A stretch of DNA of 64,000 nt from positions 96,001 through 160,000 of IMG/VR virus record IMGVR_UViG_3300045988_082442. One strand, given 5' to 3'. Below the pieces are notes generated by a model, which had not been told where the DNA came from, did no database searches, and worked only from the letters and a program-made list of their open reading frames with translations. The position numbers and the translations under genes were made by a program. This document shows, piece after piece, positions 3,580 to 53,328 of the stretch (the stretch's first letter is position 1; each line of letters opens with the position of its first letter). The stretch is from a virus.

Positions 3580-3629
3580 AAGGATAATTTTACAATCCTT
3601 GCAGGAAACTGCAAACTGTGTAATTTGAT
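3580..3629 (+). ncRNA. CRISPR leader module L1 (two-hairpin element)
   Basis: AAGGAT-aattttaca-ATCCTT then GCAG-gaaa-CTGC then AAACTGTGTAATTTGAT, abutting the first repeat; 7 copies in the window with compensatory changes. Confidence 0.7.
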
Positions 3630-3797
3630 GTTTTATAGCTATGTAAAATGACACAGATGTGAAAGAATCCAACCCAATATAAAGTAGAACAAGGCGTTTT
3701 ATAGCTATGTAAAATGACACAGATGTGAAAGTTCTTTCTAATTTTAATGTCCTTATCATTAGTTTTATAGCTATGTAAAATGACACAGATGTGAAAG
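3630..3797 (+). CRISPR. mini-array 1: 3 repeats, 2 internal spacers of 30 nt
   Basis: Three identical copies of GTTTTATAGCTATGTAAAATGACACAGATGTGAAAG at 3630-3665, 3696-3731 and 3762-3797; spacers AATCCAACCCAATATAAAGTAGAACAAGGC and TTCTTTCTAATTTTAATGTCCTTATCATTA. Confidence 0.9.
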
Positions 3798-13822: not shown

Positions 13823-13868
13823 AGAGGAATTAGTATAAATAAATATATTGAGAAGAGGTAGGTATTAT

Positions 13869-16800: not shown

Positions 16801-17030
16801 TAAGAAGTCTATCAACAGAAAATGCAATAAATAAGAAATTTGGATTTACAGTAGATAGAATGGGTGTAGTACATCTTCAAGATACAGAAAAGAAAGAAAC
16901 AGATAAGCAAGAAGATATAAATGCAATAATAAGTGATGAAATGGAAAAATTAAAAGAACATAAGTCAACAGTAGAAACTGTAGACCCTAATAAATATTGG
17001 GGTAATAAAAGTGGAATGATTATAATATAG
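13869..17030 (+). CDS. terL: terminase large subunit, interrupted in frame by an intein
   Basis: Walker A GSTGTGKST, Walker B-like AAMDEMSF, nuclease-domain motifs HCDLSKSGD, SCDGYQS, GKDISDSLGGAVYNA; likely start ATG 13869 after AGAGGTAGG. Confidence 0.85.
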   Translation: MNEQLDLMTSLSMEELEAVKEILNEISTTGSSEMYDAINLADYEEIPVDLWTFLSRDDLLGKYTNGGKDIYQTWVNELKYVHNPANFVDQWAITGSTGTGKSTVATYSLCYELYKLMCLKNPNRFYLGANETIWFLFFNLNLKLAEKTMWGKFQKALQMSPWFLERGTVSGKTNLVYQPNKDIKLDIGSTEEHALSVAVQFAAMDEMSFGSNDNVEYLQTGMMAIYNQLYLRLSSRFLSAGRIQGRMYLISSAKSTNAVLESFIKDNEGQPGMHVSRYKQWEVLPASKFSGKWFKLAVGNELLESYIMGVDVSDEDVKNVEMQGYQVIDVPLEMMRRFEMDLNRTLIDTCGIAVQSSYKFIPYRIIEPCLGDGINPFKQEIIKTGMKDNMQIKDFFEPEIVPEILYSKKLYIHCDLSKSGDMTGISCVAVLGYKNQERYDAEGNLSTLKEMVFRHVFSIGLQCPANDELSMIKVKDFIHYLKYDLGWNIAGVSCDGYQSLMLLQSLRLDGFTTSEVSMDILKNKECVGYTSFRNALLEKRIYLLKLHELIREITNLEKNETTGKIDHPRQCLTGDTKVRMLDGTSKTMTDLLLDYQNNIPNYVYSFNETTHKIEPNLIKKVWQTRYEKCIYEITLDNDEIIRCTENHPFMLRDGQYIEAKNLKTDDALMPLYTKLAGKGGLKDYRIYYEPMEGRWHFEHTRFDPIRKLKRIKGNVTHHANYNKLDNRPINLKYITKAKHRWIHNRHPGKYENLKRSKTITEWHAQNKNSVEYKARNEKCRIGVINYYVNNPAIMNKKVSSFKNTISKLSTEELSKKFGKNKGRHWYTNGVNNMLLYPTDLVPDGYFKGKTQDGKWYTNGAKTILVKAADDIPDGFYAGRTLEYKNHKVKSIRVRYGYEKVYDLEVENNPNFALDAGVFVHNSTTINKETGEKVKSVGKDISDSLGGAVYNAILSVNLDELDYLDQKILTNDGQGNTYIRSLSTENAINKKFGFTVDRMGVVHLQDTEKKETDKQEDINAIISDEMEKLKEHKSTVETVDPNKYWGNKSGMIII
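15579..16631 (+). mobile_element. intein with HNH-type homing endonuclease insert (351 codons)
   Basis: HPRQ|CLTGDTKVRMLDG (block A, Cys1), ...YDLEVENNPNFALDAGVFVHN|S (block G, His-Asn plus Ser+1); internal THHANYNKLDNRPINLKYITKAKHRWIHN and two WYTNG repeats. Confidence 0.85.
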
Positions 17031-28890: not shown

Positions 28891-28941
28891 AGTGCAATTT
28901 TATATTTTAAAGTGCAAAAATTGCACTTTAAAAATTTATTC

Positions 28942-28978
28942 AAAAATGCTTGACATAATTTAAAACTTATAATATACT
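28942..28978 (+). promoter_or_regulatory. class-1 conserved phage promoter copy driving CRISPR array 2
   Basis: AAAAATGCTTGACATAATTTAAAACTTATAA then TATACT; no ORF between it and the leader/array. Confidence 0.7.
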
Positions 28979-29008
28979 TATATAAGTTAAAGAATTTATA
29001 ATAAATAT

Positions 29009-29058
29009 AGAGGTAATTTTACAACCTCTGCAGAAAACTGCGAACTGTGTATTTTGAT
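29009..29058 (+). ncRNA. CRISPR leader module L2
   Basis: AGAGGT-aattttaca-ACCTCT, GCAG-aaaa-CTGC, GAACTGTGTATTTTGAT. Confidence 0.7.
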
Positions 29059-29160
29059 GTTTTATAGCTATATAGAATGGCACAGGTGTAAAAGTATACC
29101 ATTTTGGGCTTTCCAAATCTTCCTGTTTTATAGCTATATAGAATGGCACAGGTGTAAAAG
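29059..29160 (+). CRISPR. mini-array 2: 2 repeats, 1 internal 30-nt spacer (plus a degenerate repeat remnant near 29191-29220)
   Basis: GTTTTATAGCTATATAGAATGGCACAGGTGTAAAAG at 29059-29094 and 29125-29160; spacer TATACCATTTTGGGCTTTCCAAATCTTCCT; downstream ...ACATAGAATGGAATAG resembles the repeat core. Confidence 0.85.
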
Positions 29161-29215
29161 AAATTAGTTTCATGAGTTGTAGATATTTGGAATAAAACAT
29201 AGAATGGAATAGATT

Positions 29216-29773
29216 ATGAGTGATTTTAAATTTATATTGTATTTAGATATGGATGGTGTAACAGCATCATCAAGTTATATAATAAAGATACATAATTACA
29301 TAATAAATAAGGAAGATGAAAATAAAGACTGGGAATATAGAAACTTTATGCAAAATTGGTGTTTTCAGAAGGAAGCAGTAGAATGCTTAAATTCTATATA
29401 TGATATAATACCATATAAAATAGTTCTATCAACTACAAGAAGATTTGAACTGGATATAAATGGATGGAACACAGTATTTAAGATAAATAAGATTAAAGCA
29501 AAAATAATAGGAAGAACATCTAAATGTGCATTTGATAAGAATAAATATACTTGGAGAGAAGATGAGATATATAAATATCATTATATAGACCATGACCTAA
29601 AGGACGTACCATTGATAATAATAGATGACGATAGCTTTGATTTACAGAAGTTTGAAGATAAACTAATAAAGGTAGATGGTACAGAAGGACTAACAATGAA
29701 ATACTATAAAGAAATATTAGATAAATTATATAAACAAGGTATTATGTATAAGGGGGATAGTAATGAGTATTGA
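29216..29773 (+). CDS. HAD-superfamily hydrolase-like protein
   Basis: Motif I LDMDGV, motif II LSTTRR, acidic IIIDDD. Confidence 0.5.
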   Translation: MSDFKFILYLDMDGVTASSSYIIKIHNYIINKEDENKDWEYRNFMQNWCFQKEAVECLNSIYDIIPYKIVLSTTRRFELDINGWNTVFKINKIKAKIIGRTSKCAFDKNKYTWREDEIYKYHYIDHDLKDVPLIIIDDDSFDLQKFEDKLIKVDGTEGLTMKYYKEILDKLYKQGIMYKGDSNEY

Positions 29774-30041
29774 ACAAAAAGTTAAAGAGTATATAGATAA
29801 CTGGAATTTAGGAGAATTGTCTGAAAGAGAACTTATAGATTTTATAAATTCATCTGAATCAGATTTATTTACTGGAAAAGATGTTGAGGATAATGACATA
29901 TCTATAATTATAAATAAAGGTGTAAACATAGAGTATAGAACATATCAGTCAAATGGCTGGATAAGAATAAATAGATATGAATTAGCAGAAGATGATGAGG
30001 GAAATACTATAATTGTCGAATCAGAGTCTTATGATAAATAA
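29763..30041 (+). CDS. hypothetical protein
   Basis: 92-aa ORF. Confidence 0.5.
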   Translation: MSIEQKVKEYIDNWNLGELSERELIDFINSSESDLFTGKDVEDNDISIIINKGVNIEYRTYQSNGWIRINRYELAEDDEGNTIIVESESYDK

Positions 30042-30048
30042 TAAATAT

Positions 30049-30099
30049 AAGGGTAGTTTTACAATCCTTGCAAGAAATTGTGAACTGTGATATTTTGAT
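30049..30099 (+). ncRNA. CRISPR leader module L3
   Basis: AAGGGT-agttttaca-ATCCTT, GCAA-gaaa-TTGT, GAACTGTGATATTTTGAT. Confidence 0.7.
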
Positions 30100-30325
30100 G
30101 TTTTATAGCTATATAAAATGACACAGATGTGAAAGACACAATTGTTTAAATCTTTTAAAATTTGATGTTTTAGAGCTGTATAAAATAACACAGGTGTGAA
30201 AGGAACGATGTAACTTCTAACAATGAAAAGAGGTTTTAGAGCTGTATAAAATAACACAGGTGTGAAAGGCATTAGTTACTGTGTGTTTTGTTTTAGAGCT
30301 GTATAAAATAACACAAGCGTGAAAG
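30100..30325 (+). CRISPR. mini-array 3: 4 repeats of two subtypes; spacers 31, 30 and 21 nt (degenerate terminal repeat near 30353-30388)
   Basis: R1 GTTTTATAGCTATATAAAATGACACAGATGTGAAAG (30100); R2-R3 GTTTTAGAGCTGTATAAAATAACACAGGTGTGAAAG (30167, 30233); R4 differs only in its tail, ...ACACAAGCGTGAAAG (30290). Confidence 0.85.
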
Positions 30326-30390
30326 TATTTTGAAGATAGTGATGATGTTTTTTGTTTTATAAATATACAAAATATAATAAAATAATTTAA

Positions 30391-30427
30391 TAAAATACTT
30401 GACAAAATTTAAAACTTATTATAGAAT
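30391..30427 (+). promoter_or_regulatory. class-1 conserved phage promoter copy
   Basis: TAAAATACTTGACAAAATTTAAAACTTATTA then TAGAAT. Confidence 0.65.
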
Positions 30428-30455
30428 AGATACAGTTAAAAGAAGGAGGTGCTTT

Positions 30456-32003
30456 ATGGAAGATAGAGATAGAACAGAGCATGTATTCAAGAGTATAAAA
30501 TATCATTTGAATAAACTAAAAGACGCAAGACCAGAATATGAATTTTTAATGATAGCAGCACAGGGTAGTCAGAACTATAATTTAGATTTATATACAGAAG
30601 AATATAAATCAGATGTAGATACAGTAGCAATAGTATTACCCCCAGTAGAAGATATTATAAATAATGCACCATTTGTTAGTGAGACAATAATCTTAGGAAA
30701 TAATGAACATATAGATGTAAAAGATTTAAGACAAATAATAGAGTTATTTAAGAAACAGAATATTAAATACTTAGAGATATTATTTACTAAATTTAGAATA
30801 ATCAATAGTAAATATAAAGATGAAGTACTAGAGTTATTGAATAATGCTGATAATATAGCTAAATTAAACCCAAAGAAATTAGTAACTAGCTCATTTGGAA
30901 TGCAGTTAGAAAAGCATAAAGCATTAGAACATCCTTATGAGGGATTAAAAGAGAAAATATCTAAATATGGGTATGATGGAAAGCAATTACACCATATAAT
31001 AAGACTAACACATTTTGTAAATAGGTATATTAAAGACTTAGATTTTAGAAATGCAATGAACTTTGAAGATATAGATGATAATATATATAATGATTTAATA
31101 AAAGCTAAGTTAAATAAATATAGTTTAGATATGGCAAGAAGTGAGGCATTAACACAGACACAAAGATTAATGAACATAAAAGATGAGTTTGTATTATCTT
31201 ATAAAGACCTAGATACATCTAATACATTAGAGTTTCTAAGTACAATAAAGAATAAAATATTTAATAAATATCTTGAATACAAATTTACACCAGAAGATAA
31301 GATAGAAAAACCTATACTAATACCATCAGCAGATAGAATATTTGTAACATCTGATTTACATTTTGGGCATTCAAATATATTAAAATATGAACCTAAAAGA
31401 TGGGAACTAACAGGTACAACTGAATTAAAAGCAATAAGTGAAACATTAATAGATGAAGGATTTACAAATGAAGAAATATCTAATATGCCAGATGATTTAT
31501 GGGATAAATATAGAAATATAACCTGTAATAAATATATGGAAAAACATGATAAAGAACTTATTAGAAGATGGAATGAGAGAGTAAAAGAAGATGACCTTGT
31601 ATTTATATTAGGTGATTTATCTTTCAGAACTGGTACAGAAACAAATAAAATATTAAAACAGTTAAAAGGTAGAAAGGTATTGATAAAAGGTAATCATGAG
31701 AATATCTGGATGAATAAGAATGCTGACCTATCATTATTTGAAGAAATAGTCGATTATAAAGAGATAAAGGTAGATAAATGTATGTTTTGCATGTCACATT
31801 ATCCATTTAGAGTATGGAACCAACAGCATAATGGCTCAATACAATTATTTGGACATATACATAGTAATGAAACAACAAGCCATCCAATGAAAGAAGAAAT
31901 ACCTTATTCATATAATGTAGGTGTAGATGTAAATAATTATTATCCAGTAAGTCTAAAAGACTATGTAGTGACATCTAACTACTGTAATGAATTAGAGATA
32001 TAA
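30456..32003 (+). CDS. fusion protein: RlaP-like nucleotidyltransferase plus metallophosphoesterase
   Basis: ATG 30456 after AAGGAGG; N-terminal AAQGSQNYNLDL...SDVDT (PF10127-like); C-terminal SDLHFGH, LGDLS, GNHE, GHIH. Confidence 0.6.
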   Translation: MEDRDRTEHVFKSIKYHLNKLKDARPEYEFLMIAAQGSQNYNLDLYTEEYKSDVDTVAIVLPPVEDIINNAPFVSETIILGNNEHIDVKDLRQIIELFKKQNIKYLEILFTKFRIINSKYKDEVLELLNNADNIAKLNPKKLVTSSFGMQLEKHKALEHPYEGLKEKISKYGYDGKQLHHIIRLTHFVNRYIKDLDFRNAMNFEDIDDNIYNDLIKAKLNKYSLDMARSEALTQTQRLMNIKDEFVLSYKDLDTSNTLEFLSTIKNKIFNKYLEYKFTPEDKIEKPILIPSADRIFVTSDLHFGHSNILKYEPKRWELTGTTELKAISETLIDEGFTNEEISNMPDDLWDKYRNITCNKYMEKHDKELIRRWNERVKEDDLVFILGDLSFRTGTETNKILKQLKGRKVLIKGNHENIWMNKNADLSLFEEIVDYKEIKVDKCMFCMSHYPFRVWNQQHNGSIQLFGHIHSNETTSHPMKEEIPYSYNVGVDVNNYYPVSLKDYVVTSNYCNELEI

Positions 32004-32073
32004 AAATGTTCAGTAAGATGTTAATAAGAATGTAAGTAAGTTTTCTGGTATCTTGATAAAAACCAGAATATAT

Positions 32074-32146
32074 CTCCTTATGGTGTAATAGGCAAACACG
32101 CTACTGAGTGGTGGTAGAATTATAGGTTCGAGCCCTGTTGGGGAGG
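32074..32146 (+). ncRNA. tRNA-like element A (non-canonical anticodon loop, no encoded CCA)
   Basis: Acceptor CTCCTTA/TGGGGAG, D arm GTGT/ACAC, T arm ATAGG-TTCGAGC-CCTGT are good; anticodon stem CTACT/GGTAG closes the loop GAGTGGT, which lacks U33. Confidence 0.5.
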
Positions 32147-32180
32147 ATAAATTCTATATATAGAATAATGTGTTACGCAG

Positions 32181-32266
32181 TATCTGTATTATAAGGTGAC
32201 AAGTACACAGGACGCTGTGGAGGGTTTCAATTCCTGGTAGTTGATTAGGTCTACAAAATACAGATA
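32181..32266 (+). ncRNA. unassigned structured element B (10-bp closing stem)
   Basis: TATCTGTATT (32181-90) pairs with AATACAGATA (32257-66); internal hairpins CACAG-gacg-CTGTG and GTAG...CTAC; not foldable by eye as a tRNA. Confidence 0.35.
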
Positions 32267-32272
32267 TAATAT

Positions 32273-32344
32273 CAGGTGGTAGTTGATAGGAAAACACTTC
32301 TACTAATGTATGAAGAGATGCTGGTTCGAATCCAGCCCTCCTGA
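32273..32344 (+). ncRNA. tRNA-like element C (acceptor/T-arm minihelix intact, D and anticodon arms degenerate)
   Basis: Acceptor CAGGTGG/CCTCCTG (one U-U), T arm GCTGG-TTCGAAT-CCAGC; no convincing 5-bp anticodon stem or 7-nt loop. Confidence 0.45.
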
Positions 32345-32357
32345 CCTTTTCAAAAAT

Positions 32358-32443
32358 GCAAGTATATCTCAACGGCAGAGCAGCCTCCAGTTGGGGGTGA
32401 AAAGTAGCATACGATTGTGTAGGTTCGAATCCTACTACTTGCA
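32358..32443 (+). ncRNA. tRNA-like element D (long variable region, non-canonical anticodon arm, no CCA)
   Basis: Perfect acceptor GCAAGTA/TACTTGC, T arm GTAGG-TTCGAAT-CCTAC, D arm CTC-aacggca-GAG; the central region does not give a standard anticodon arm. Confidence 0.5.
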
Positions 32444-32446
32444 ACC

Positions 32447-32489
32447 TAAAAATGACACAGATGTAAAAGAATATATTCATAGGTTATAT
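32447..32489 (+). CRISPR. solitary crRNA-like unit: repeat 3' handle (23 nt) plus a 20-nt guide, flanked by tRNA-like D and tRNA-Trp
   Basis: TAAAAATGACACAGATGTAAAAG (32447-32469) matches the 3' part of the array repeats; followed by AATATATTCATAGGTTATAT, ending one base before tRNA-Trp position 1. Confidence 0.65.
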
Positions 32490-32564
32490 AGGAGCTTGGT
32501 GTCAATGGTAGCACGACAGTCTCCAAAACTGTGAGTGAGAGTTCAAATCTTTCAGCTCCTGCCA
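32490..32564 (+). tRNA. tRNA-Trp (anticodon CCA), CCA encoded
   Basis: Acceptor AGGAGCT/AGCTCCT, D arm GTGT/GCAC, anticodon arm ACAGT-CTCCAAA-ACTGT, T arm GAGAG-TTCAAAT-CTTTC, G73, CCA. Confidence 0.85.
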
Positions 32565-32778
32565 ACATATCAATAATTCTAAATAAAATAAAAATAATCA
32601 GATTGGGTTTGGTACACCTGTAAGTTTGGGTATAGATATGGTCCTAAAAGGTCAGTCTTGATTATGCACAGAGATGTGCTGGCGAACGGTGAATTATTGA
32701 TATAAACAGATTGGATTATAACCTCTATAAGTTCAAGATAGAATGGGCTTGAAATACAATCTGTCAGTAATTTAATAT

Positions 32779-32864
32779 GGGTAGTTGGGTGAGTGGCTAA
32801 AACCATCAGACTGTAAATCTGACCTCATTTGAGTTCCCTAGTTCGAATCTAGGACTACCCACCA
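32779..32864 (+). tRNA. tRNA-Tyr (anticodon GTA), long variable arm, CCA encoded
   Basis: Acceptor GGGTAGT/ACTACCC, anticodon arm TCAGA-CTGTAAA-TCTGA, variable arm CCTCATTTGAGTTC, T arm CCTAG-TTCGAAT-CTAGG, A73, CCA. Confidence 0.85.
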
Positions 32865-32868
32865 GTAA

Positions 32869-32918
32869 AAGGGCAATTTTACAGCCCTTGCAGGAAACTG
32901 TGAACTGTGTATTCTGAT
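32869..32918 (+). ncRNA. CRISPR leader module L4
   Basis: AAGGGC-aattttaca-GCCCTT, GCAG-gaaa-CTGT, GAACTGTGTATTCTGAT; begins 5 nt after the tRNA-Tyr CCA. Confidence 0.7.
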
Positions 32919-32919
32919 A

Positions 32920-33144
32920 TTTTTATAGCTATATGAAATAATACAGGTGTAAAAGTGTTCTAACTGTTTTAGAGTATAATCGTTTGTTTTACAGATATAT
33001 GAAATAACACAGGTGTAAAAGCTAGACTGTAAATCTGGTCTCATTTGAGTTACTTTGTAGTTATATGAAATAGCACAGATGTAAAATTGGATAATATGTT
33101 CTGAATTGTTTTATAGCTATACAGAAATGACATGGATGTAAGAG
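32920..33144 (+). CRISPR. mini-array 4: 4 diverged repeats; spacers 30, 30 and 20 nt; directly upstream of the effector gene
   Basis: R1 TTTTTATAGCTATATGAAATAATACAGGTGTAAAAG (32920), R2 GTTTTACAGATATATGAAATAACACAGGTGTAAAAG (32986), R3 ACTTTGTAGTTATATGAAATAGCACAGATGTAAAAT (33052), R4 GTTTTATAGCTATACAGAAATGACATGGATGTAAGAG (33108). Confidence 0.8.
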
Positions 33145-33201
33145 TTACGGCTAGGTATAGACATCAATAGTGATAAATAATTTATTTGGGGGTTAAAAAA
33201 A

Positions 33202-35007
33202 ATGAAAAGAAAAGAGTTAAACGAAGGAGTTCACTGTGTAGAATATGCTTTAATGCACATACCAGATGAATATAAGGAATTGTTAGAAAGACAATATAAT
33301 TATATGGAAGATTTCAAGAATGGCTTTATTAGTTATATGTGGAGATATATTTCAAAGCAACGAAAGGAAAACGAAGAATTTGATAAAGCCATGGCTGAAG
33401 TTAGATACTTAAATACAAAGGAAGGAAGAATTATAAAGAAGGATGAACGCTCTAATAGACTAAGTAAAGCATATACAACAATAGGTAATTTTGTAAAAGA
33501 AACAAAGTTATTAGATTCTGGAAGTAGACGAAAAGAATACTACAGTACAGTAAAAAATGTTTATTATGCTTGGATACCAGATGATAGTAGGTCTTATGCA
33601 ATAGATGATGTTTTATCAGCATTTGAAGTATTCTTCTTTGATAGGGGTAAAGCAGTATTCCAAAAGAAATATGGTCATACAAAAATATTACAATTTAAAC
33701 CAGCATACAGTAGAATGAAGAGTACTGGTGAAATCAATACAATAGTACAAACACCTAGCAGAGTTGTATTTGAAAATGGAAATCCTTATTTTGAAATGTG
33801 GGATTTAAGAGATTTAAAAGATATACCAGAAGAAGAATGTCAAAAAGGTAAAAGACATAGTAAGATAAGATTTAGAATGTATTGTAATGATAAAGATGAG
33901 TTACAAAGTTATATAAAAACAAACCCATACATAGGTGGAACTAAGTTATTAAGATACTGGAAGAAGGGAAAATGGAGATATAGAGTTCAATTAAACTTTG
34001 AAGCAATATCACCAGCAGTAAAACAAATGAGCAACGAAGAGCATATAATGGGAATAGACTTAGGTACAGAAACAATAGCTTGGGTAAGAGATGATGGAGA
34101 ACAAGCAATATGGGAGTTATCACCAGATACACCAAGGGTAACAGAAGAAATAAAGGAAATAGATGTATATTTAGATAATTCAAGAAGGGCTATGAATCCA
34201 GAATTATTTAGGGAAGATGGTACTAGAATAAGTAATAGGGAAGCTAGGGAATTAGGATTAGAAGAAAAGCATTCAAAAAGATATATAAAAGCAGCAGCAA
34301 GAAGAAAAGAATGTTTTAGATATTTAGGAGAAAAAAGAAAACTAAATAACAGAATCCTAGCTAAAAAGTTATTTGAATTAGGTAATGAGTTTCATATAGA
34401 AAATAATAAGGTTTCATCTTGGATGTTAAAAAGATGTCACATGGCTCTTAAAACAGCAATGAAATATGCTTCTGGAGCAAGAGCAAGTGATTATGGGAAA
34501 GTTGTAGCAGATAGAGCCCCAGGAATGATAGATGCAAGATTATCTCAATTAGCAGGACAAAAAGGACTTTCATACCATAAAATTGAGAAGATAGAAGGTT
34601 TTAAATGCACAGAATATAATCATTTTACGGATAAGAATGATTTATTCCAATATCTAAATGACAGAATTGTAGTATTAGATGTTGACAGTGTAAATGATGT
34701 CTATAAAGAGTTTATTACTGATTTTGGTGATACAATTACTGATTTAAAAATAGACGGAAAAGACATAATACTACAAAGAGATTTATATGCAGCAGCAAAA
34801 TTAGTTTATTGCACACCATATAAAGAAACTATTGTGAATAGTAAAGGTAGAAAGGTAGAAGTAACAAGATATAAATTTGATAGAGAAGGGTTTAGCAAAT
34901 TCTTTGTTGAGAAATTTTATCCAAAACATTTAGAGTATATAATGAATCTAAGGGCTGAGTTAGCTAATGGTAAGAAGCTAAGTGGTACTGTATTTGGTAA
35001 TATTTAA
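33202..35007 (+). CDS. compact TnpB/Cas12-like RuvC nuclease (putative type V-like single effector, 601 aa)
   Basis: RuvC-I HIMGIDLGTETIAW (D286), RuvC-II GNEFHIENNKVSSWM (E400), RuvC-III DIILQRDLYAAAKL (D527); TnpB-like order of basic helices between motifs; no CxxC zinc finger in the lid/Nuc region; flanked by array 4 and a solo leader. Confidence 0.75.
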   Translation: MKRKELNEGVHCVEYALMHIPDEYKELLERQYNYMEDFKNGFISYMWRYISKQRKENEEFDKAMAEVRYLNTKEGRIIKKDERSNRLSKAYTTIGNFVKETKLLDSGSRRKEYYSTVKNVYYAWIPDDSRSYAIDDVLSAFEVFFFDRGKAVFQKKYGHTKILQFKPAYSRMKSTGEINTIVQTPSRVVFENGNPYFEMWDLRDLKDIPEEECQKGKRHSKIRFRMYCNDKDELQSYIKTNPYIGGTKLLRYWKKGKWRYRVQLNFEAISPAVKQMSNEEHIMGIDLGTETIAWVRDDGEQAIWELSPDTPRVTEEIKEIDVYLDNSRRAMNPELFREDGTRISNREARELGLEEKHSKRYIKAAARRKECFRYLGEKRKLNNRILAKKLFELGNEFHIENNKVSSWMLKRCHMALKTAMKYASGARASDYGKVVADRAPGMIDARLSQLAGQKGLSYHKIEKIEGFKCTEYNHFTDKNDLFQYLNDRIVVLDVDSVNDVYKEFITDFGDTITDLKIDGKDIILQRDLYAAAKLVYCTPYKETIVNSKGRKVEVTRYKFDREGFSKFFVEKFYPKHLEYIMNLRAELANGKKLSGTVFGNI

Positions 35008-35017
35008 TATAAATTAT

Positions 35018-35089
35018 AGGGTAATTTTACAGCCCTTGCAGGAAACTGCAAATAAAATATCATTTTAAAGCTCTATGATATTGTAAAAG
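35018..35089 (+). ncRNA. solo leader module L5 plus truncated degenerate repeat
   Basis: AGGGT-aattttaca-GCCCT, GCAG-gaaa-CTGC, then ATTTTAAAGCTCTATGATATTGTAAAAG (35062-35089), which resembles the repeat ends. Confidence 0.6.
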
Positions 35090-35124
35090 AAACTGATTTA
35101 AAAATCAGTTTGTATATTCTTTTT
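35090..35124 (+). terminator. intrinsic terminator
   Basis: AAACTGATTT-aa-AAATCAGTTT followed by GTATATTCTTTTT. Confidence 0.65.
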
Positions 35125-36743: not shown

Positions 36744-37916
36744 GTGAATTTATTAGATAGTGTAGAAATTCAGAAATTAGAAGAGGATATAAAAAGATAT
36801 GCAAAAGCGTACTACGAGGGAAAAGCTCAAATCTCTGACTATGAGTTCGACAAACTTACAGATAGATTAAGAGATTTAAAACCAGACTCAACTGTATTAA
36901 GAACACCGGGATGGGGATATGAACAAACTGGTACAAAAGTAAAACATAAATATCAAATAGTTAAAAGTTTGGATAAGTGCAGAACATTTGATGAAATTCC
37001 AGAAAGATTTACAAATAAATCAGTAGCATTATCACCAAAACTAGATGGTCTTACAGGTGTATTCTATTATAAAAATGGTAGACTTATAAAAGCAATAACA
37101 AGAGGAAATGGAACAGAAGGCAAGGATATTACAGATAAAGCAAGACTAATAGTAGGTAATGAAATATTAGATAAGAACTTTACAGGTGGTGTTAGAGGTG
37201 AACTTGAAATTTCTAATACTAACTGGGAAATAATAAAGAGCAAATACCCAGAAGCTAAGAATGCAAGGAACTTATGTGCAGGTTGGATAAATTCAAAAGA
37301 CTATAATCCAGATGAAATAAAAATGATAGATTTTATTACTTATAAGGTAACTGGACAAGAAAGAGAAGAAGGAAAAGAAGATATATTTTATGATTTATCA
37401 AAAGTAGATAATATTGGTGAGATATGCTTTAATAGCAATCCAACTAAGTTTAATGTTATAGACTGGCTATCATATAACTTTAAAAATACAATACCAAAGG
37501 TACAAGCAACATTAACAAGAGATGGGTTTCAAGAATTTATGCAAAAGGTATTTACTGAATTTAAAACAAGTGATAGATATAATTTAGATTACGAACTAGA
37601 TGGTATTGTTATATCTGATATAGATGTAATATATCATAGAGCAGAAAATTCATATATTTATGATGAGTGTGCCTTTAAATTTGCAGCTGAATCTGCTGAG
37701 GCTAAGGTTACAGGAATTACTTGGAATATGACAAGAACACAAAGATTAGTTCCCATTGTTCAGTTTGAACCTGTATTTTTATCTGGTGCTGTTTTACAAA
37801 ATGCTACTGGACACAATGCAAAGTTTATATTAGATAATGAAATAAAAATTGGTTCTACTATTGAGATTTGCAGAAGTAATGAAGTAATTCCTTATATAAA
37901 GAAGGTAGTTGATTAA
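36744..37916 (+). CDS. ligA: NAD-dependent DNA ligase, N-terminal fragment (Ia, adenylation, OB domains)
   Basis: YYEGKAQISDYEFDKL (Ia), motif I SPKLDGLTGV, later ELDGIVI, OB end SNEVIPYIKKV; stops exactly before the expected Zn finger. Confidence 0.8.
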   Translation: MNLLDSVEIQKLEEDIKRYAKAYYEGKAQISDYEFDKLTDRLRDLKPDSTVLRTPGWGYEQTGTKVKHKYQIVKSLDKCRTFDEIPERFTNKSVALSPKLDGLTGVFYYKNGRLIKAITRGNGTEGKDITDKARLIVGNEILDKNFTGGVRGELEISNTNWEIIKSKYPEAKNARNLCAGWINSKDYNPDEIKMIDFITYKVTGQEREEGKEDIFYDLSKVDNIGEICFNSNPTKFNVIDWLSYNFKNTIPKVQATLTRDGFQEFMQKVFTEFKTSDRYNLDYELDGIVISDIDVIYHRAENSYIYDECAFKFAAESAEAKVTGITWNMTRTQRLVPIVQFEPVFLSGAVLQNATGHNAKFILDNEIKIGSTIEICRSNEVIPYIKKVVD

Positions 37917-42432: not shown

Positions 42433-42494
42433 TGTGAATACATCTAACAGTACATATTTGTTAGATGTATATTTTATATATAGGAGGATTTAAT

Positions 42495-43289
42495 ATGGGA
42501 ATAGATTATAAAACAATAAGTCATGAATTACCAGACAATTTATTATGGCTGGAAGATAGAACAATATTACTAACAAAGGCAGGTTCATACATATATGGGA
42601 CAAACATAGAAACATCAGATACAGACTATAAAGGTGTTTGTATCCCACCAAAAGAATATTATTTAGGTTTAAAATCAATAAATGAATATAATAAATCTGG
42701 TGGTAAAAACTTTGGTGAAAGAAATACCAAAGATGATATAGATATAGTTGTATGTCATATAAATAAGTTTGTAAGAGATGCTATGAATGGTATTCCAAAT
42801 AATTTAGATATACTATTTTGTAGAGATGAGGATGTAATTTATATGGATGATTTTGGTAAGGAGTTAAGAGATTTTAGACATGAGTTCTTATCAAAAGAAG
42901 TATTCAAAAAGTTCTCAGGTTACGCTTTATCACAAAAACATAAAATAGAGACTAAAAAGAATCATGGAACTGGAAGAAGAGAATTAGTAGAAGAATTTGG
43001 GTATGACTGTAAATTTGCTTATCATGCTGTAAGACTAATATTAGGTGCAACAGAAATATTAGAAACACATGATTATCATTCATATAGACCAGAAAGGGAA
43101 TGGTTAGTAGAAATAAGAAAAGGTAAATATACACTAGAAGAAATATTTGATATAATAGAAGATTTAGATGCAAAACTAAAAAGTGCTTATGAAACAAGTA
43201 CATTAAGAGAAAAACCAGATTATCATAAAATAAATAAATGGCTAATAGGTTTAAATGAAAGAGCATTGAATTATGACTTTAAAAGGTAG
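42495..43289 (+). CDS. RlaP-like nucleotidyltransferase (PF10127-type)
   Basis: ATG 42495 after AGGAGG; KAGSYIYGTNIETSDTDYKGVCIPP... Confidence 0.6.
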   Translation: MGIDYKTISHELPDNLLWLEDRTILLTKAGSYIYGTNIETSDTDYKGVCIPPKEYYLGLKSINEYNKSGGKNFGERNTKDDIDIVVCHINKFVRDAMNGIPNNLDILFCRDEDVIYMDDFGKELRDFRHEFLSKEVFKKFSGYALSQKHKIETKKNHGTGRRELVEEFGYDCKFAYHAVRLILGATEILETHDYHSYRPEREWLVEIRKGKYTLEEIFDIIEDLDAKLKSAYETSTLREKPDYHKINKWLIGLNERALNYDFKR

Positions 43290-43445: not shown

Positions 43446-44213
43446 ATGGGAAATTCAAGAATAAAAACATTAAGTGATAGAATGAAAGATTATGAGTTAG
43501 CATCTGATTACAGACTAACAAAGAAAACACCTGTAATAGTGAGAATAGATGGTAAATCATTTCACACCTTTACAAAAGGATTAGATAAACCTTTTGATAG
43601 TATATTATCAGAAGCAATGAACTATGTTTGTAGAAAATTAGTAGAAACAGTACAGGGCTGTAAGTTTGCATATACACAATCAGATGAGATAAGTTTATTA
43701 TTAACAGATTGGGATAAATCAACAACAGATTGTTATTTTGATTATAGGGTACAGAAAATGGTATCAGTATTAGCTTCAGCAGCAACTATGTATTTTAATC
43801 AGTATATAGTATCAAGAGTTTTATACTGGCAAAAAGGAGAGTCAGAATTATCAGAAAAGTTATTTGATAAATGGGCTGCAAAAGCTGGTTGTGCAATGTT
43901 TGATGCAAGAGCATATAATTTGCCAAAAGAAGAAGTATGTAATTACTTTATATGGAGACAAGAAGATGCAAGCAGAAATTCTATACAGTCATTAGGCAGA
44001 AGTAGATTTTCATTTAAGCAAATGTTAAATAAAAAGAACAATGAAGTACAAGATATGCTGTTTAATGAATATGGTATAAATTGGAATCGTATAGATACTA
44101 AATGGAAAAGAGGATTTGCAGTATGTAGAGATAAAGATGGTATAAAATCAGACTTTGAGATACCATTATTTAAAAAAGATAGAGCATTTATAGACAAATA
44201 TCTTATAGTATAA
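43446..44213 (+). CDS. Thg1-like protein (tRNA-His guanylyltransferase family, 3'-5' nucleotidyltransferase)
   Basis: VIVRIDGKSFHTFTKG, AYTQSDEISLLL, and the later FDARAYNLP...NYFIWRQEDASRNS typical of Thg1/TLP. Confidence 0.8.
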   Translation: MGNSRIKTLSDRMKDYELASDYRLTKKTPVIVRIDGKSFHTFTKGLDKPFDSILSEAMNYVCRKLVETVQGCKFAYTQSDEISLLLTDWDKSTTDCYFDYRVQKMVSVLASAATMYFNQYIVSRVLYWQKGESELSEKLFDKWAAKAGCAMFDARAYNLPKEEVCNYFIWRQEDASRNSIQSLGRSRFSFKQMLNKKNNEVQDMLFNEYGINWNRIDTKWKRGFAVCRDKDGIKSDFEIPLFKKDRAFIDKYLIV

Positions 44214-45390: not shown

Positions 45391-47859
45391 ATGAGAAATT
45401 TAGTAGTATTAAGAGGATGCCCAGGTGCAGGGAAATCAACTTGGATAAAAGAAAATGGTTTAGAGCCTTATACATTATGTCCAGATACAATAAGGACAAT
45501 GGTAAGTGCTCCAGTATATACAGAAGAACATGATACTGAGATGACTATATCTCAGCAAAATGAAACTTATACATGGAATTTATTATTTGAATTACTTGAA
45601 AATAGAATGAAGAATGGTGATTTTACAGTAATAGATGCAACACATAGCAGGTCATCAGATTTTAGTAGATATAACGATTTATGTTCTACATATAGATATA
45701 GAAGATATACTGTATCATTTACAGATGTACCAGAAGAAGTATGTAAACAAAGAAATCTGGAAAGAGATGCCTATAAACAGGTACCACCTGAAGTTATAGA
45801 AAAGATGTATGCTAGATTTGCAACACAAAATAAAACAAGTGGATGGACAGAAATTCCAAGAGATAAATTCTGGGAAGTATTTAGTAATAAAGTGTTTGAT
45901 TTTAATAAGTATGAAAAAGTTCATATATTTGGTGATATTCATGGATGTTATGACCCACTAGAACAATATATAGTAGATAGCTATAATGGAGATGATGTAC
46001 ATGAAGATTTAAGCCCAGAAACATTAAAGAATTTATTAAATAAAGATGAGGCTTATATATTTGTAGGTGATTACTTAGATAGAGGATTACAAAATAAAGA
46101 AGTTTTAAAATTTATGATTTCAATATGTCAATTAGATAATGTTTTATGCTTAGAGGGAAATCACGAAAGATATTTATGGTATTGGGCTAATGAACAAGAT
46201 AATGAAATAAGAAGTAAAGAGTTCTTTAATCATACAGTACCACAAATAAGAGGTATATCTCCATCTGATATAAGACAATTTTATAGAAAATTAGGACAAA
46301 TGGCATTATTTACATTTAATAATGAAACATATTTTGTAACACATGGTGGATTATCATTATTACCAGAACACTTACCATTAGTATCAACAAATTGTCTAAT
46401 AAATGGTACAGGAAGATTTAAGTTTCCAATAGATGAAAGATATACAGAAAATATGCAAGGTAAAAATGTATTACAAGTACATGGTCATAGAAATATGGAA
46501 TGTGATTATAAAGGAAAACTACCTTTATCATTCTCACTAGAAGATAGAGTTGAGTTTGGTGGTAATTTTGTAGTATTAGAAATAAATGAGAAAGGTAATT
46601 ACTTCCATAGAATAAAGAATGATACATTTAGGGAACCTGATTATGACAATAAAGAAGAAGAAATAATACCAGCATTTGATATGACAATGGACAATATTGT
46701 AGAAAGAATGAGATTGAATAAGAACATAAAAGAAACAGTGCTACCAGATGGTATATCATCTTTTAACTTTACTAGACAAGCATTTGAAAAAGATAGATGG
46801 AACTCAGAAACAGTTAAAGCAAGGGGATTATTTATAGATACTGAAAACAATAAAATAGTTGCAAGAGGATATGAGAAGTTCTTTAATATAAATGAACAAG
46901 AAAACTGTAAATTATTTAATCTAAAATCATTATTTAATACAGGATTACCTGTAATTGCATATAAGAAGTATAATGGATTTTTAGGAATATTAAGTTATTA
47001 TCATGATGAGTTAAAATTCCATTCAAAATCTACTAATATAGGTGATTATGCAAACTACTTTAAAGACCTATTTTATAAAAGATTTACTGACAAACAAATA
47101 GATATGATTACAGATTATTTAAAGAATAATAATGTATCAATGGTATTTGAAGTTATAGACATAGACAATGACCCACATATCATAGAAGAAAAAGAAAGCA
47201 GAGTAGTTTTATTAGATATAATCAGAAATGAAGTAGAGTTTAGCAGATTACCTTATGACCAGTTATTACTTTTAGCAAACTTATGGGGAATAAAAGAAGA
47301 TGGTGTAAAACAAATATATAAAGAATTTACATCATACAGAGAGTTGACTGAGTTCTATGAAATACATAAAGATGATAAAAACTTTAATGATATTGATATA
47401 GAAGGAGTTGTAATAGAATGTGGTAACTTTATGACAAAGCTTAAATTTAATTATTATAGATTCTGGAAGGGTATGAGAAGTGTTGCAGAAAAATTACAAA
47501 GTGGAAGAGATAATGTAAAATTAAGTATGTTATACAATGCAACTGCAAACTATTTCTATAAGTTTGTAAAAGATATGGTAGAAGAAAAACAGTTAGAACT
47601 TCTAAAAATAAAAGATACATTAGGATTGGGAGATATAAATGCTGGTGATTTAAGAAGAGCAGAATTAGACTTTGAAAATAATATGATTACAATTCATAAA
47701 AGAGATAGAAGAGCTTATTATATAGGAAATGATATTACAGCAGAAAATGTTATTACAGCAACAACAACCCCAGAAATAATGAACAAACTATCAGAACTAC
47801 AAAAATCAAAGGATATAATAACATTAAGAAACGAATATTATAGAAATGGTGGTGTTTAA
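45391..47859 (+). CDS. Pnkp-like RNA repair enzyme (polynucleotide kinase, metallophosphatase, RNA ligase)
   Basis: Walker A GCPGAGKST; GDIHGC, GDYLDRG, GNHE, HGH; ligase motif I AYKKYNGFLG; the same domain order as bacterial Pnkp. Confidence 0.75.
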   Translation: MRNLVVLRGCPGAGKSTWIKENGLEPYTLCPDTIRTMVSAPVYTEEHDTEMTISQQNETYTWNLLFELLENRMKNGDFTVIDATHSRSSDFSRYNDLCSTYRYRRYTVSFTDVPEEVCKQRNLERDAYKQVPPEVIEKMYARFATQNKTSGWTEIPRDKFWEVFSNKVFDFNKYEKVHIFGDIHGCYDPLEQYIVDSYNGDDVHEDLSPETLKNLLNKDEAYIFVGDYLDRGLQNKEVLKFMISICQLDNVLCLEGNHERYLWYWANEQDNEIRSKEFFNHTVPQIRGISPSDIRQFYRKLGQMALFTFNNETYFVTHGGLSLLPEHLPLVSTNCLINGTGRFKFPIDERYTENMQGKNVLQVHGHRNMECDYKGKLPLSFSLEDRVEFGGNFVVLEINEKGNYFHRIKNDTFREPDYDNKEEEIIPAFDMTMDNIVERMRLNKNIKETVLPDGISSFNFTRQAFEKDRWNSETVKARGLFIDTENNKIVARGYEKFFNINEQENCKLFNLKSLFNTGLPVIAYKKYNGFLGILSYYHDELKFHSKSTNIGDYANYFKDLFYKRFTDKQIDMITDYLKNNNVSMVFEVIDIDNDPHIIEEKESRVVLLDIIRNEVEFSRLPYDQLLLLANLWGIKEDGVKQIYKEFTSYRELTEFYEIHKDDKNFNDIDIEGVVIECGNFMTKLKFNYYRFWKGMRSVAEKLQSGRDNVKLSMLYNATANYFYKFVKDMVEEKQLELLKIKDTLGLGDINAGDLRRAELDFENNMITIHKRDRRAYYIGNDITAENVITATTTPEIMNKLSELQKSKDIITLRNEYYRNGGV

Positions 47860-49193: not shown

Positions 49194-49243
49194 AAGGATA
49201 ATTTTACAATCCTTACAGGAAACTGTGAACTGTGTAATTTAAT
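49194..49243 (+). ncRNA. CRISPR leader module L7
   Basis: AAGGAT-aattttaca-ATCCTT, ACAG-gaaa-CTGT (compensatory relative to GCAG/CTGC), GAACTGTGTAATTTAAT. Confidence 0.7.
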
Positions 49244-49673
49244 ATCCTATAGCTATATAAAATGACACAGATGTGAAAGTATTGCAACATTAAAATACCC
49301 TATTTTTGGGGTTTTATGGCTATATAAAATAACACAGATGTGAAAGAGGGATTTTGTTTTGTTAGCATTTATTTCTGTTTTATAGCTATATAAAATGACA
49401 CAGATGTGAAAGTCTGGAACAAATCTTGAAAAGTCCAGCTTTGTTTTATGGCTATATAAAATAACACAGGTGTGAAATAATTCAAAGTATTGTTCAAATA
49501 GTTTCTGTGTTTTATAGTTATATAAAATGACACAGATGTGAAAGGAATACTAAAATAAAGTAGCAATTGAGCTAGTTCTATAGCTATATAAAATGACACA
49601 GATATGAAAGTTAAGCTCATGAATGATAGCAACAATAGTTTTATAGATATATAAGAAGCAGAAAGGAGAAAAT
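49244..49673 (+). CRISPR. mini-array 5: 6 good repeats plus a degenerate terminal repeat; spacers 31, 30, 30, 30, 30 and 27 nt
   Basis: Repeats at 49244, 49311, 49377, 49443, 49509, 49575 (for example GTTTTATAGCTATATAAAATGACACAGATGTGAAAG at 49377); terminal GTTTTATAGATATATAAGAAGCAGAAAGGAGAAAAT at 49638. Confidence 0.9.
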
Positions 49674-52823: not shown

Positions 52824-53273
52824 ATGGGGATGTATGATACAATAAACCCTGCATTAGCAAAAAGAATAATAACACATTGTCCTATTTGTGATAAGTACCT
52901 ATATAATAGTGATGATGTAGAATGGCAAACAAAATGTTTTAGTAATATTTTAAAAGAAATAAATTTAGAGGATATACATCGTGATACATTTGAAATGCAT
53001 GTAATATGCCCTAATTGTAATCAATATTTTAGTATAGACGTAAATTTAAAAGAAGGTAATTTTACTGCACAGAGTAACTTTGATTTTGATGTAGGGGATA
53101 CCTATATTAGACCTTTTGAAGATACATCTTTAACATCAGATTATATAGTTTTAAAAAGTCAAAGGCTATTCAATAATGGTATTAAAGAATGGCTAGAGTT
53201 AAATTCAGTAGATATATGTGATATGGAAGGATTTTATATTATACCTAAATCAGTATTAAATAAAAATGCTTGA
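52824..53273 (+). CDS. zinc-ribbon protein
   Basis: CPICD...CPNCN; RBS AAGGAGGA. Confidence 0.5.
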   Translation: MGMYDTINPALAKRIITHCPICDKYLYNSDDVEWQTKCFSNILKEINLEDIHRDTFEMHVICPNCNQYFSIDVNLKEGNFTAQSNFDFDVGDTYIRPFEDTSLTSDYIVLKSQRLFNNGIKEWLELNSVDICDMEGFYIIPKSVLNKNA

Positions 53274-53328
53274 CAGAAAAATACTTGACAAAAAAATGCT
53301 TGACATAATATCAAATTTATTATATAAT
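53262..53328 (+). promoter_or_regulatory. triple TGCTTGACA / ACTTGACA -35 cluster ending in a consensus TTGACA-17-TATAAT promoter
   Basis: TTGACA at 53270, 53285 and 53300 (15-nt phasing); the third is followed by 17 nt and TATAAT at 53323-53328. Confidence 0.7.

Follow-up and report, generated by a model that had tools for sequence, protein, structure and literature searches.

A tRNA-Tyr-like spacer of foreign origin in a phage CRISPR array beside a putative compact type V-like effector

CRISPR arrays of huge phages have been reported to carry spacers directed at rival phages and at the transcription and translation genes of hosts (Al-Shayeb et al. 2020, PMC7162821). One huge phage targets the sigma70 of its host and itself encodes a copy, and a second aims at the host's glycyl-tRNA synthetase with a catalytically impaired Cas14 (PMC7162821). 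Here we describe a 30-nt spacer that resembles a tRNA-Tyr gene, the second spacer of array 4 (hereafter spacer 2), in a 64,000-nt stretch of phage DNA (the window; positions 96,001 to 160,000 of the IMG/VR record IMGVR_UViG_3300045988_082442). The window belongs to a scaffold of 213,644 bp from a human-gut metagenome (ENA ERZ28663717), and the analysis covered these 64 kb of the 214-kb genome, in which lysis, tail and terminase-like genes were recognised by PHROG matches. In our preferred reading, to which we assign a probability of roughly 0.53, spacer 2 belongs to a phage-encoded compact type V-like system, was captured from a foreign tRNA-Tyr gene and is aimed at rival tRNA-carrying phages.

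The finding belongs to a known kind, namely phage-encoded CRISPR directed against rivals or host translation components. Like the huge-phage systems (PMC7162821), the locus combines a 214-kb phage, compact arrays and a miniature TnpB-derived effector, with no adaptation genes seen among the window ORFs scanned, and, as in the sigma70 case, a spacer corresponds to a core translation component of which the phage has its own copy. Unlike those systems (PMC7162821), the apparent target is a tRNA gene and not a protein gene, the match is 29/30 and not perfect, the effector family stands apart in sequence from all solved structures, and the arrays are interleaved with tRNA genes and each preceded by a structured leader. 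Virus-borne mini-arrays (PMC11656645), for which virus exclusion is the likely role, are similar in being short (1-5 spacers) and scattered in a viral genome. However, classical mini-arrays (PMC11656645) combine host repeats with host Cas proteins and act mostly against close relatives, whereas the present phage has its own effector and the phage contigs matched by spacer 2 are unrelated to it in the regions compared. What appears to be new is a tRNA gene as a target class, with a divergent allele resident in the phage; an effector family with a predicted Cas12m/Cas12f-like fold but without sequence-level membership; and a covarying leader like a trans-activating CRISPR RNA (tracrRNA) for each array, with the arrays embedded among tRNA genes.

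A spacer derived from a second tRNA-Tyr allele

Spacer 2 and its surroundings are laid out as follows.

32779-32864, + strand: resident phage tRNA-Tyr(GTA) gene, A-type allele (ARAGORN and Rfam, 58.6 bits), with a protospacer-like segment at 32806-32835
32920-33144, + strand: array 4, with repeats at 32920-32955, 32986-33021, 33052-33087 and 33108-33144 (the last of 37 nt)
32956-32985, 33022-33051 and 33088-33107, + strand: the spacers of array 4, of 30, 30 and 20 nt
33022-33051, + strand: spacer 2 of array 4, tRNA-Tyr-like, covering the anticodon arm and variable arm in tRNA sense

Array 4, the fourth of five arrays, has four regularly spaced direct repeats of 36-37 nt with unique spacers of 30, 30 and 20 nt between them, and is a genuine CRISPR array. 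Spacer 2 (33022-33051, CTAGACTGTAAATCTGGTCTCATTTGAGTT) is flanked by the repeats at 32986-33021 and 33052-33087, and 157 nt separate it from the end of the tRNA-Tyr gene. It aligned without gaps to 32806-32835 (TCAGACTGTAAATCTGACCTCATTTGAGTT) in the resident gene with 26/30 identical positions and mismatches at positions 1, 2, 17 and 18; these sequences, coordinates and differences agreed throughout with the original prediction. On both strands of the window the second-best placement of spacer 2 reached 19/30, the best match in 200 shuffled windows never exceeded 22/30, and the chance expectation for matches of at least 26/30 was about 2e-7. The spacer runs from the first base of the anticodon stem to the last base ahead of the T stem, a coincidence of borders expected by chance roughly once in 57, and the likeness ends at both spacer borders with neither flank included.

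The original prediction had further read the four differences as compensatory changes in the anticodon stem. This was borne out for pair 1-17 (tRNA positions 27-43), where U-A is replaced by C-G in the sole two-sided compensatory change, but not for the rest: position 2 is a one-sided C-to-U change that results in a U.G wobble, and position 18 is the first nucleotide of the variable region and lies outside the stem.

We searched IMG/VR, JGI/ENA metagenome contigs and 185,579 GTDB species genomes with a pattern (YYAGACTGTAAATCTGRYCTCATTTGAGTT) that admits spacer 2 as well as its counterpart in the resident gene. All 32 loci found were tRNA-Tyr genes, none of them inside an array, and they fell into two alleles, with one contig (L013) intermediate between them.

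A-type allele: TCAGA...TCTGAC, base before the 30-mer A, spacer match 26/30
A-type carriers: Clostridium sp. CAG:571 and many Clostridia metagenome-assembled genomes (MAGs); among phages, the resident gene
B-type allele: CCAGA...TCTGGT, base before the 30-mer G, spacer match 29/30 with position 2 as the sole mismatch
B-type bacterial carriers: other Clostridia contigs (L004, L006, L023, L024, L025 and L028)
B-type phage carriers: IMG/VR contigs L001 (175 kb) and L002 (83 kb), and L019, in an Asn-Tyr-Thr tRNA cluster

Among bacteria, copies of both alleles adjoin tRNA-Met wherever the neighbouring sequence is covered (contig L006 ends before it). The phage copies of the B-type sit in tRNA clusters, on contigs that also contain phage-type RNA and DNA ligase genes. 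The variable arm of the B-type is that of spacer 2, and the A-to-B differences account for three of the four differences between spacer and resident gene. If the resident gene had decayed at random, these three B-type differences would arise with a probability of 81 in 2,219,805, or 3.6e-5. Because the B-type matches at 29/30, because decay would so rarely produce this match and because the homology stops at the spacer borders, spacer 2 comes, on sequence comparison, from a foreign B-type tRNA-Tyr gene or a close U28 variant of it and not from the resident A-type gene. The claim that the source is a real, different tRNA-Tyr allele and not a decayed resident copy is thereby confirmed.

The opposite idea, that part of the tRNA-Tyr gene resident 216 nt upstream recombined into the array and then decayed, could appeal to the closeness and common strand of the two segments and to the overall degeneracy of array 4. 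A tRNA fragment or pseudogene formed by local duplication is nevertheless effectively refuted: three of the four differences are exactly those of the B-type, which is the nearest relative (29/30 vs 26/30), the likeness is spacer-sized, at exactly 30 nt without either flank, and the alleles are also distinct in the base 5' of the protospacer (A in the resident gene, G in the B-type).

The remaining difference, at position 2, has natural counterparts. A 17-nt stem-loop containing the U.G wobble (CTAGACTGTAAATCTGG) occurred in 14 IMG/VR phage contigs, always in tRNA-Tyr-like sequence; 13 of these were ARAGORN-called tRNA-Tyr genes, with other variable arms and matches of 19-22/30 to spacer 2. The tRNA-Tyr-like context of all 14 matches shows the U28.G42 stem to be natural, and a tRNA-Tyr with the CTAGA/TCTGG stem, on whose existence the original prediction had depended, does occur. 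A real but unsampled tRNA-Tyr gene with the exact sequence of spacer 2 is thus plausible, the alternative being a one-base drift of a B-type spacer.

The borders of spacer 2, which are those of the anticodon arm plus variable arm, and its tRNA sense would also suit an RNA mimic, in which the spacer transcript serves as a decoy for a tRNA-Tyr-directed nuclease or modification enzyme without DNA targeting, and the phage invests heavily in tRNA repair. We regard this as very improbable. The C-to-U change weakens the hairpin, and the minimum-free-energy fold of spacer 2 is not the anticodon stem (-3.6 kcal/mol vs -5.7 kcal/mol for the B-type). Neither the fold of spacer 2 nor that of repeat-spacer-repeat was distinguishable from shuffles, leaving a tRNA-mimic fold unsupported. 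Moreover, the coincidence of borders is within reach of chance, a 30-nt unit in array register is more simply a spacer, and no other array of the family contains a comparable unit. The original prediction had called a tRNA gene an unusual target, which holds within the family: spacer 2 is the only tRNA-like spacer among 66 in the window and five relatives.

In both phage tRNA-Tyr genes (window 32840-32856, A-type; L001 836-852, B-type), the T stem departs in the same way from that of the bacterial counterparts, with TGG...CCA changed to TAG...CTA, which turns a G-C pair into A-U. The A-U pair may be a phage-specific feature of tRNA-Tyr.

Arrays, leaders and the putative effector

All genes, tRNAs and arrays lie on the + strand, and the five arrays share one 36-nt repeat (consensus GTTTTATAGCTATATAAAATGACACAGATGTGAAAG) and 30-nt spacers. 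The other four arrays are given here.

3630-3797, + strand: array 1, 3 repeats and 2 spacers, leader at about 3581-3629
29059-29160, + strand: array 2, 2 repeats and 1 spacer, leader at about 29010-29058, downstream of a TTGACA/TATAAT promoter-like site
30100-30325, + strand: array 3, 4 repeats and 3 spacers, the last of 21 nt, leader at about 30051-30099
49244-49610, + strand: array 5, 6 repeats and 5 spacers, leader at about 49195-49243

The same layout was found in related phage contigs (L033, 195 kb; L035, from IMG/VR, 70 kb; L036-L039; L040; L041), where multiple arrays with 36-nt repeats and 30-nt spacers are interleaved with tRNA clusters around the effector gene. The repeat ends pair, positions 2-12 with 25-35: over 73 distinct repeats, pairing amounted to 82% vs 76.5% in shuffled repeats, with none of 500 shuffles as high, and it was also far above that in slid registers. 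Rfam recognised only tRNAs in the window, with no CRISPR-DR family fitting the repeat in 31950-33250 even at E up to 1, and megablast of 28900-35100 against GenBank phages found no relative. The only other contig with an identical effector (L045) was 100% identical over its whole 5,050 bp, spacer 2 included. In the strain represented by L042/L043, the effector is 99% identical and the flank is 98.7% identical from the terminal repeat on, and the array spacers are wholly different. Because this strain has other spacers in array 4, the arrays turn over and the tRNA-like spacer is strain-specific.

The last spacer is shortened to 20-21 nt ahead of a degenerate terminal repeat in array 3 (30269-30289) and array 4 (33088-33107), and short terminal spacers of 17-27 nt occur in the relatives too.

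The leader of array 4 starts straight after the CCA end of tRNA-Tyr, and no terminator-like site was found between this tRNA gene and the array. A conserved structured leader of about 50-60 nt precedes all five arrays of the window as well as the arrays of L033, L035, L036, L040 and L041. It contains two hairpins, followed by roughly 10 nt that show complementarity to repeat positions 17-26 and covary with the cognate repeat. Hairpin 1 has covarying stems (AAGGGC/GCCCTT, AAGGAT/ATCCTT, GAGGT/ACCTC and CAGGC/GTCTG). Hairpin 2 has a 4-bp stem with a GNRA-like loop, in the variants GCAG-GAAA-CTGC, GCGG-GAAG-CCGC, GCGC-GAAG-GCGC and ACGC-GCAA-GCGT, and its covariation across leaders is strong.

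32865-32919, + strand: leader of array 4, with hairpin 1 at 32870-32888, hairpin 2 (GAAA loop) at 32890-32901 and the anti-repeat-like CTGTGTATT at 32905-32913
Window: leader anti-repeat CTGTGTaATTT, repeat positions 17-26 AAATgACACAG
L033: leader anti-repeat TATGTAATTT, repeat positions 17-26 AAATTACATA
L035:4757: leader anti-repeat TGTGTTAAAT, repeat positions 17-26 ATTTAACACA
L035:5735: leader anti-repeat TATGTTATT, repeat positions 17-26 AATAACATA
L036:5030: leader anti-repeat TATGTAAAAT, repeat positions 17-26 ATTTTACATA
32446-32489, + strand: solitary 3' half-repeat CTAAAAATGACACAGATGTAAAAG followed by the 20 nt AATATATTCATAGGTTATAT, fitting exactly between the tRNA at 32357-32446 and tRNA-Trp (start 32490)

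The leader thus resembles a tracrRNA-like element, joined in cis to each of the arrays. Its order, tracr-repeat-spacer, is that of engineered Cas12 single guides, and a tracr-like element in cis in each leader sets the locus apart from Cas12m and Cas12f. Cas12m is generally described as tracr-independent. Because of the leader anti-repeat and the solitary half-repeat, the handle would be the 3' part of the repeat with the spacer after it (type V geometry), which points indirectly to a repeat-derived handle 5' of the spacer. A spacer 2 guide would be in tRNA sense and therefore could pair with the template DNA strand and not with tRNA-Tyr itself.

The solitary half-repeat unit resembles an engineered tRNA-guide RNA (gRNA) unit, for which RNase Z and RNase P would generate the ends; its 20-mer had no second match in the window. 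Further solitary repeats were seen after tRNAs in L033 (5905), and others are present in L035 (8248 and 8555). The tRNA-embedded arrays and single handle-guide units together resemble engineered tRNA-gRNA arrays.

The open reading frame (ORF) of the effector starts 57 nt past array 4, a synteny common to L033, L035, L036, L040 and L041.

33202-35007, + strand: compact 601-aa TnpB/Cas12-like putative effector (PHROG, fold search, RuvC-like motifs)

Specifically, the protein matched PHROG_506 ('transposase', 3e-11) and, weakly, the TnpB model NF040570, and had no match in Pfam. A family alignment revealed the RuvC-like motifs GIDLG (D286), IENN (E at about 398) and QRDLYAA (D at about 527); the D/E/D residues are mostly conserved in the family, and one member has N for the first D. 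An AlphaFold model built on nine sequences reached a mean predicted local distance difference test (pLDDT) value of 64 and was good in the N-terminal half. Foldseek searches of the model against the PDB returned almost only Cas12, TnpB and Fanzor proteins, led by Cas12m2 (8hhl, 3.4e-8), AsCas12f (6e-8), Cas12o and CasLambda, with template modelling (TM) scores of just 0.25-0.29. By PHROG match and modelled fold, the effector is TnpB/Cas12-like and putatively type V-like, and the single effector with a split RuvC domain that characterises type V is present as the D, E and D motifs.

At about 600 aa, the protein is similar in size to Cas12m (V-M) and Cas12f-Cas14 (V-F), and it is also like them in the modelled WED-REC-RuvC order, the 36-nt repeat and the mobile-element carrier. 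Unlike these, it has no detectable sequence likeness to PDB chains, searches with the single sequence and with a profile giving no meaningful match, and the stretch from RuvC-II to RuvC-III shows no evident CxxC zinc-finger motif. Cas12m2 has a non-canonical RuvC triad (PMC10442227), whereas the D/E/D here looks canonical. Membership in type V-M was therefore rejected, the likeness to Cas12m being one of fold only, with no sequence match to Cas12m or to a PDB chain.

Eight effector homologues were found among 5.8 billion proteins in a word-indexed search, and 28 representative clusters of relatives at E up to 1e-30 among 1.84 billion. These clusters merge into a larger set of proteins of about 500 aa, eight of which were sampled, with weak OrfB_IS605 or Cas12f-TNB matches in a few. 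In view of its fused leader and tRNA-embedded units, this small Cas12-like family may be of use in the search for compact genome-editing tools. In two relatives (L033 10001-11831; L035 6351-8169), the effector gene is interrupted at one shared position, giving overlapping ORFs of about 480 and about 153 aa, which suggests either a frameshift that is conserved or a protein made of two parts.

A compact type V-like effector with a tRNA-related guide beside an atypical repeat also recalls CRISPR-associated transposons (CASTs). CAST I-F and V-K home beside tRNA genes via atypical CRISPR RNAs (crRNAs) with diverged repeats (PMC11656645). Similarly, the array closest to the effector here holds the tRNA-like spacer, and the repeat after this spacer is the most diverged one, so that the spacer might be a homing guide that leads the element, or part of it, to insert or attach at a tRNA gene, like delocalised CAST crRNAs. 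This explanation is extremely unlikely. Scans of the window ORFs with Pfam, PHROG, NCBIfam and PADLOC found no TnsB, TnsC, TniQ or integrase, the RuvC motifs are conserved, unlike in Cas12k, and the carrier is a 214-kb, lytic-type jumbo phage genome with lysis and structural genes. In addition, the guide lies inside the tRNA gene and not beside it. Membership among CAST homing crRNAs was rejected on the missing tnsB, tnsC and tniQ genes in these scans and on the conserved RuvC motifs.

Candidate targets of the guide

From the arrangement of the locus we infer the following course, from transcription, processing and loading to DNA targeting, target identity and self-sparing. Transcription of array 4 would run along the + strand and probably include the tRNA cluster upstream. 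The guide would consist of the 3' part of the upstream repeat and spacer 2, and would pair with the template DNA strand of a tRNA-Tyr gene. The effector would then be sent to cut or block DNA carrying a B-lineage tRNA-Tyr, for which co-infecting tRNA-carrying rival phages would be the likeliest targets. Since the other spacers searched gave no protospacer, rival-phage targeting by the phage's system rests on spacer 2 and on precedent. Recognition of just the one spacer that falls in a conserved gene is a bias of detection that was to be expected. Exclusion of rival tRNA-carrying phages as the function of the guide is, in our estimate, slightly better than an even chance.

The resident gene differs from the guide at the two PAM-proximal positions (PAM, protospacer adjacent motif), 1 and 2, at positions 17 and 18, and at the base directly 5' of the protospacer, and through these mismatches it would escape; a sparing of the resident tRNA-Tyr by the guide is plausible on this analysis. 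If the guide is active, the locus would be a natural viral CRISPR system aimed at a tRNA gene, with an immune allele kept by the phage, and it would extend the targeting of translation components by phages from protein genes to tRNA genes. A single guide taken from a conserved tRNA segment would have a broad reach and could cover many unrelated rivals. No protein likeness to the window's phage was found in the 6-7 kb regions compared of the phage contigs that carry the B-type.

Several observations weigh against this reading. The original prediction had expected a 30/30 protospacer with the CTAGA/TCTGG stem and the same variable arm, and none was found in IMG/VR, JGI/ENA metagenome contigs or the 185,579 GTDB genomes, although the scanned pattern could show it. 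All sampled B-type alleles mismatch the guide at position 2, which is PAM-proximal in type V logic, and this could cripple targeting; we regard it as the chief argument against a guide that is now active on the sampled B-type sequences. The AACCG sequence on the 5' flank is unlike a typical T-rich type V PAM, and no PAM was derived because no second protospacer was found. No protospacers were detected for five other window spacers in an IMG/VR scan with 22-24-nt cores, and blastn of 14 window and 52 family spacers against 50,697 GenBank phage records gave no match. The B-type carriers with a stated source were mostly from animals (water-buffalo rumen, rabbit), whereas the phage came from the human gut. 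As to the system itself, the effector model is weak in the RuvC half (pLDDT <50 at residues 396-537), and none of Cas1, Cas2 and Cas4, as a route of acquisition, was found among the 47 mid-sized window ORFs scanned. Finally, the 29/30 B-type allele is also chromosomal in several Clostridia MAGs, so that a bacterial target is equally compatible, and array 4 is the most degenerate of the five arrays, so that the spacer 2 unit may be old and inactive. No cross-targeting emerged when all spacers were compared by BLAST with the window and with each retrieved locus.

The bacterial copies of the B-type raise the possibility of a host-directed guide, in which the B-type tRNA-Tyr of the host is cut or silenced and the phage supplies its guide-resistant A-type allele, for takeover or in a tRNA conflict. 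The 29/30 30-mer is indeed chromosomal, with tRNA-Met/tRNA-Tyr synteny, in the Clostridia contigs L004, L023, L024, L025 and L028, and huge phages offer precedents in sigma70 and glycyl-tRNA synthetase (PMC7162821). The phage also encodes a tRNA/RNA repair kit (Pnkp-Rnl1 fusion, Thg1, RlaP and HAD_SAK_2), and therefore tRNAs are clearly contested here. Moreover, Cas12m, the best structural match, binds DNA and blocks transcription (PMC10442227, PMC11013384). However, the RuvC triad looks canonical and not Cas12m-like, and the guide mismatch at position 2 applies to this target as well. In addition, no other spacer matched the fetched bacterial loci, and the resident tRNA-Tyr suggests an A-type host, which the guide matches at only 26/30 with a different base at -1. 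The resident gene shares 83/86 positions with the chromosomal A-type gene that Clostridium sp. CAG:571 and MAGs related to it carry, and 76-77/86 with B-type genes, and the tRNA-Tyr genes of related phages are quite different from it. Because of the 83/86 identity, the sequence points to an A-type bacterium as the host of the phage, and this host is probably not the target of the spacer 2 guide. We therefore consider a host-directed guide unlikely.

Somewhat less probable still is a combination of these ideas in an RNA-guided tRNA replacement. Here the effector would cut or bind the B-lineage tRNA-Tyr gene of the cell or of a co-infecting phage, and the phage would supply a resistant allele together with the repair kit. 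Tyrosine decoding would become phage-dependent, and the tracr-repeat-spacer transcript would be freed by tRNA processing enzymes.

The state of array 4 bears on a further explanation, that a foreign-derived spacer is retained neutrally in a decaying array, after a one-base drift and with no present function. The repeats of array 4 are the most diverged of the five arrays, with 6, 6 and 9 of 36 positions off the consensus (9/36 in the repeat downstream of spacer 2), and the terminal repeat carries an insertion. Spacer 2 has one mismatch to every sampled target, is absent from the 99%-related strain and is a single case among the 66 family spacers. Nevertheless, the substitutions in the repeats of array 4 largely preserve the pairing of the repeat ends (C7-G30 in repeat 2; G6.U31 and U10.G27 in repeat 3), and in the repeat directly ahead of spacer 2 the 3' half (AAATAACACAGGTGTAAAAG) is intact, with zero mismatches to the family motif. 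Furthermore, a neutral spacer beside such diverged repeats should have drifted by more than 1 in 30, and the array directly adjoins the effector gene. We consider a functionless relic to be about as doubtful as a host-directed guide, and favour the targeting of rival tRNA-carrying phages over both.

In two relatives, a pair of spacers (L040 3168-3197 and L041 1066-1095) overlaps by 12 nt on opposite strands, with 20 nt that are 95% identical as reverse complement. Their 5' flanks are inconsistent, and the overlap hints at a shared target region that was sampled repeatedly.

Neighbouring tRNA genes and other features of the window

A tRNA/RNA repair toolkit is distributed over the window (29216-29773, 30399-32003, 36744-37916, 42465-43289, 43446-44213 and 45391-47859). 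Its members include a HAD_SAK_2 protein, a nucleotidyltransferase-phosphoesterase, an NAD-dependent DNA ligase, RlaP and Thg1 (tRNA-His guanylyltransferase), as well as a fusion of polynucleotide kinase, phosphatase and T4 Rnl1-type RNA ligase. The density of this toolkit suggests that the tRNAs are attacked by the host.

Two tRNA calls upstream of array 4 were odd. One, at 32273-32346, is a tRNA-Ile with the anticodon AAT; the other, at 32357-32446, is 90 nt long and has a long variable arm and a two-base anticodon (ARAGORN), with an Rfam score of 38.7 bits. Similar unassignable tRNAs lie beside arrays in L036 and L035. In addition, a non-tRNA element of about 120 nt was located between tRNA genes in the window (32148-32272) and in L036 (8862-8996). 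The copies are 77% identical pairwise and share the core AAGGTGACAA...GGTTTCAATTCCT.G.T.G.TGATTAG, which had no Rfam match.

A 1060-aa ORF at 13848-17030 contains an intein splicing domain and HNH endonuclease-like segments, and this insert sits in a protein with weak PHROG matches to terminase large-subunit and helicase. Finally, a recurrent promoter-like motif, AAAAATGCTTGACA(A/T)AATTTAAAACTTAT(A/T)ATA, was found at 28940-28985, 30395-30435 and 53262-53305. One copy may drive array 2 and one precedes the gene after array 3; at 53262-53305, the motif core AAAAATGCTTGACAA is present in three tandem 15-nt copies.

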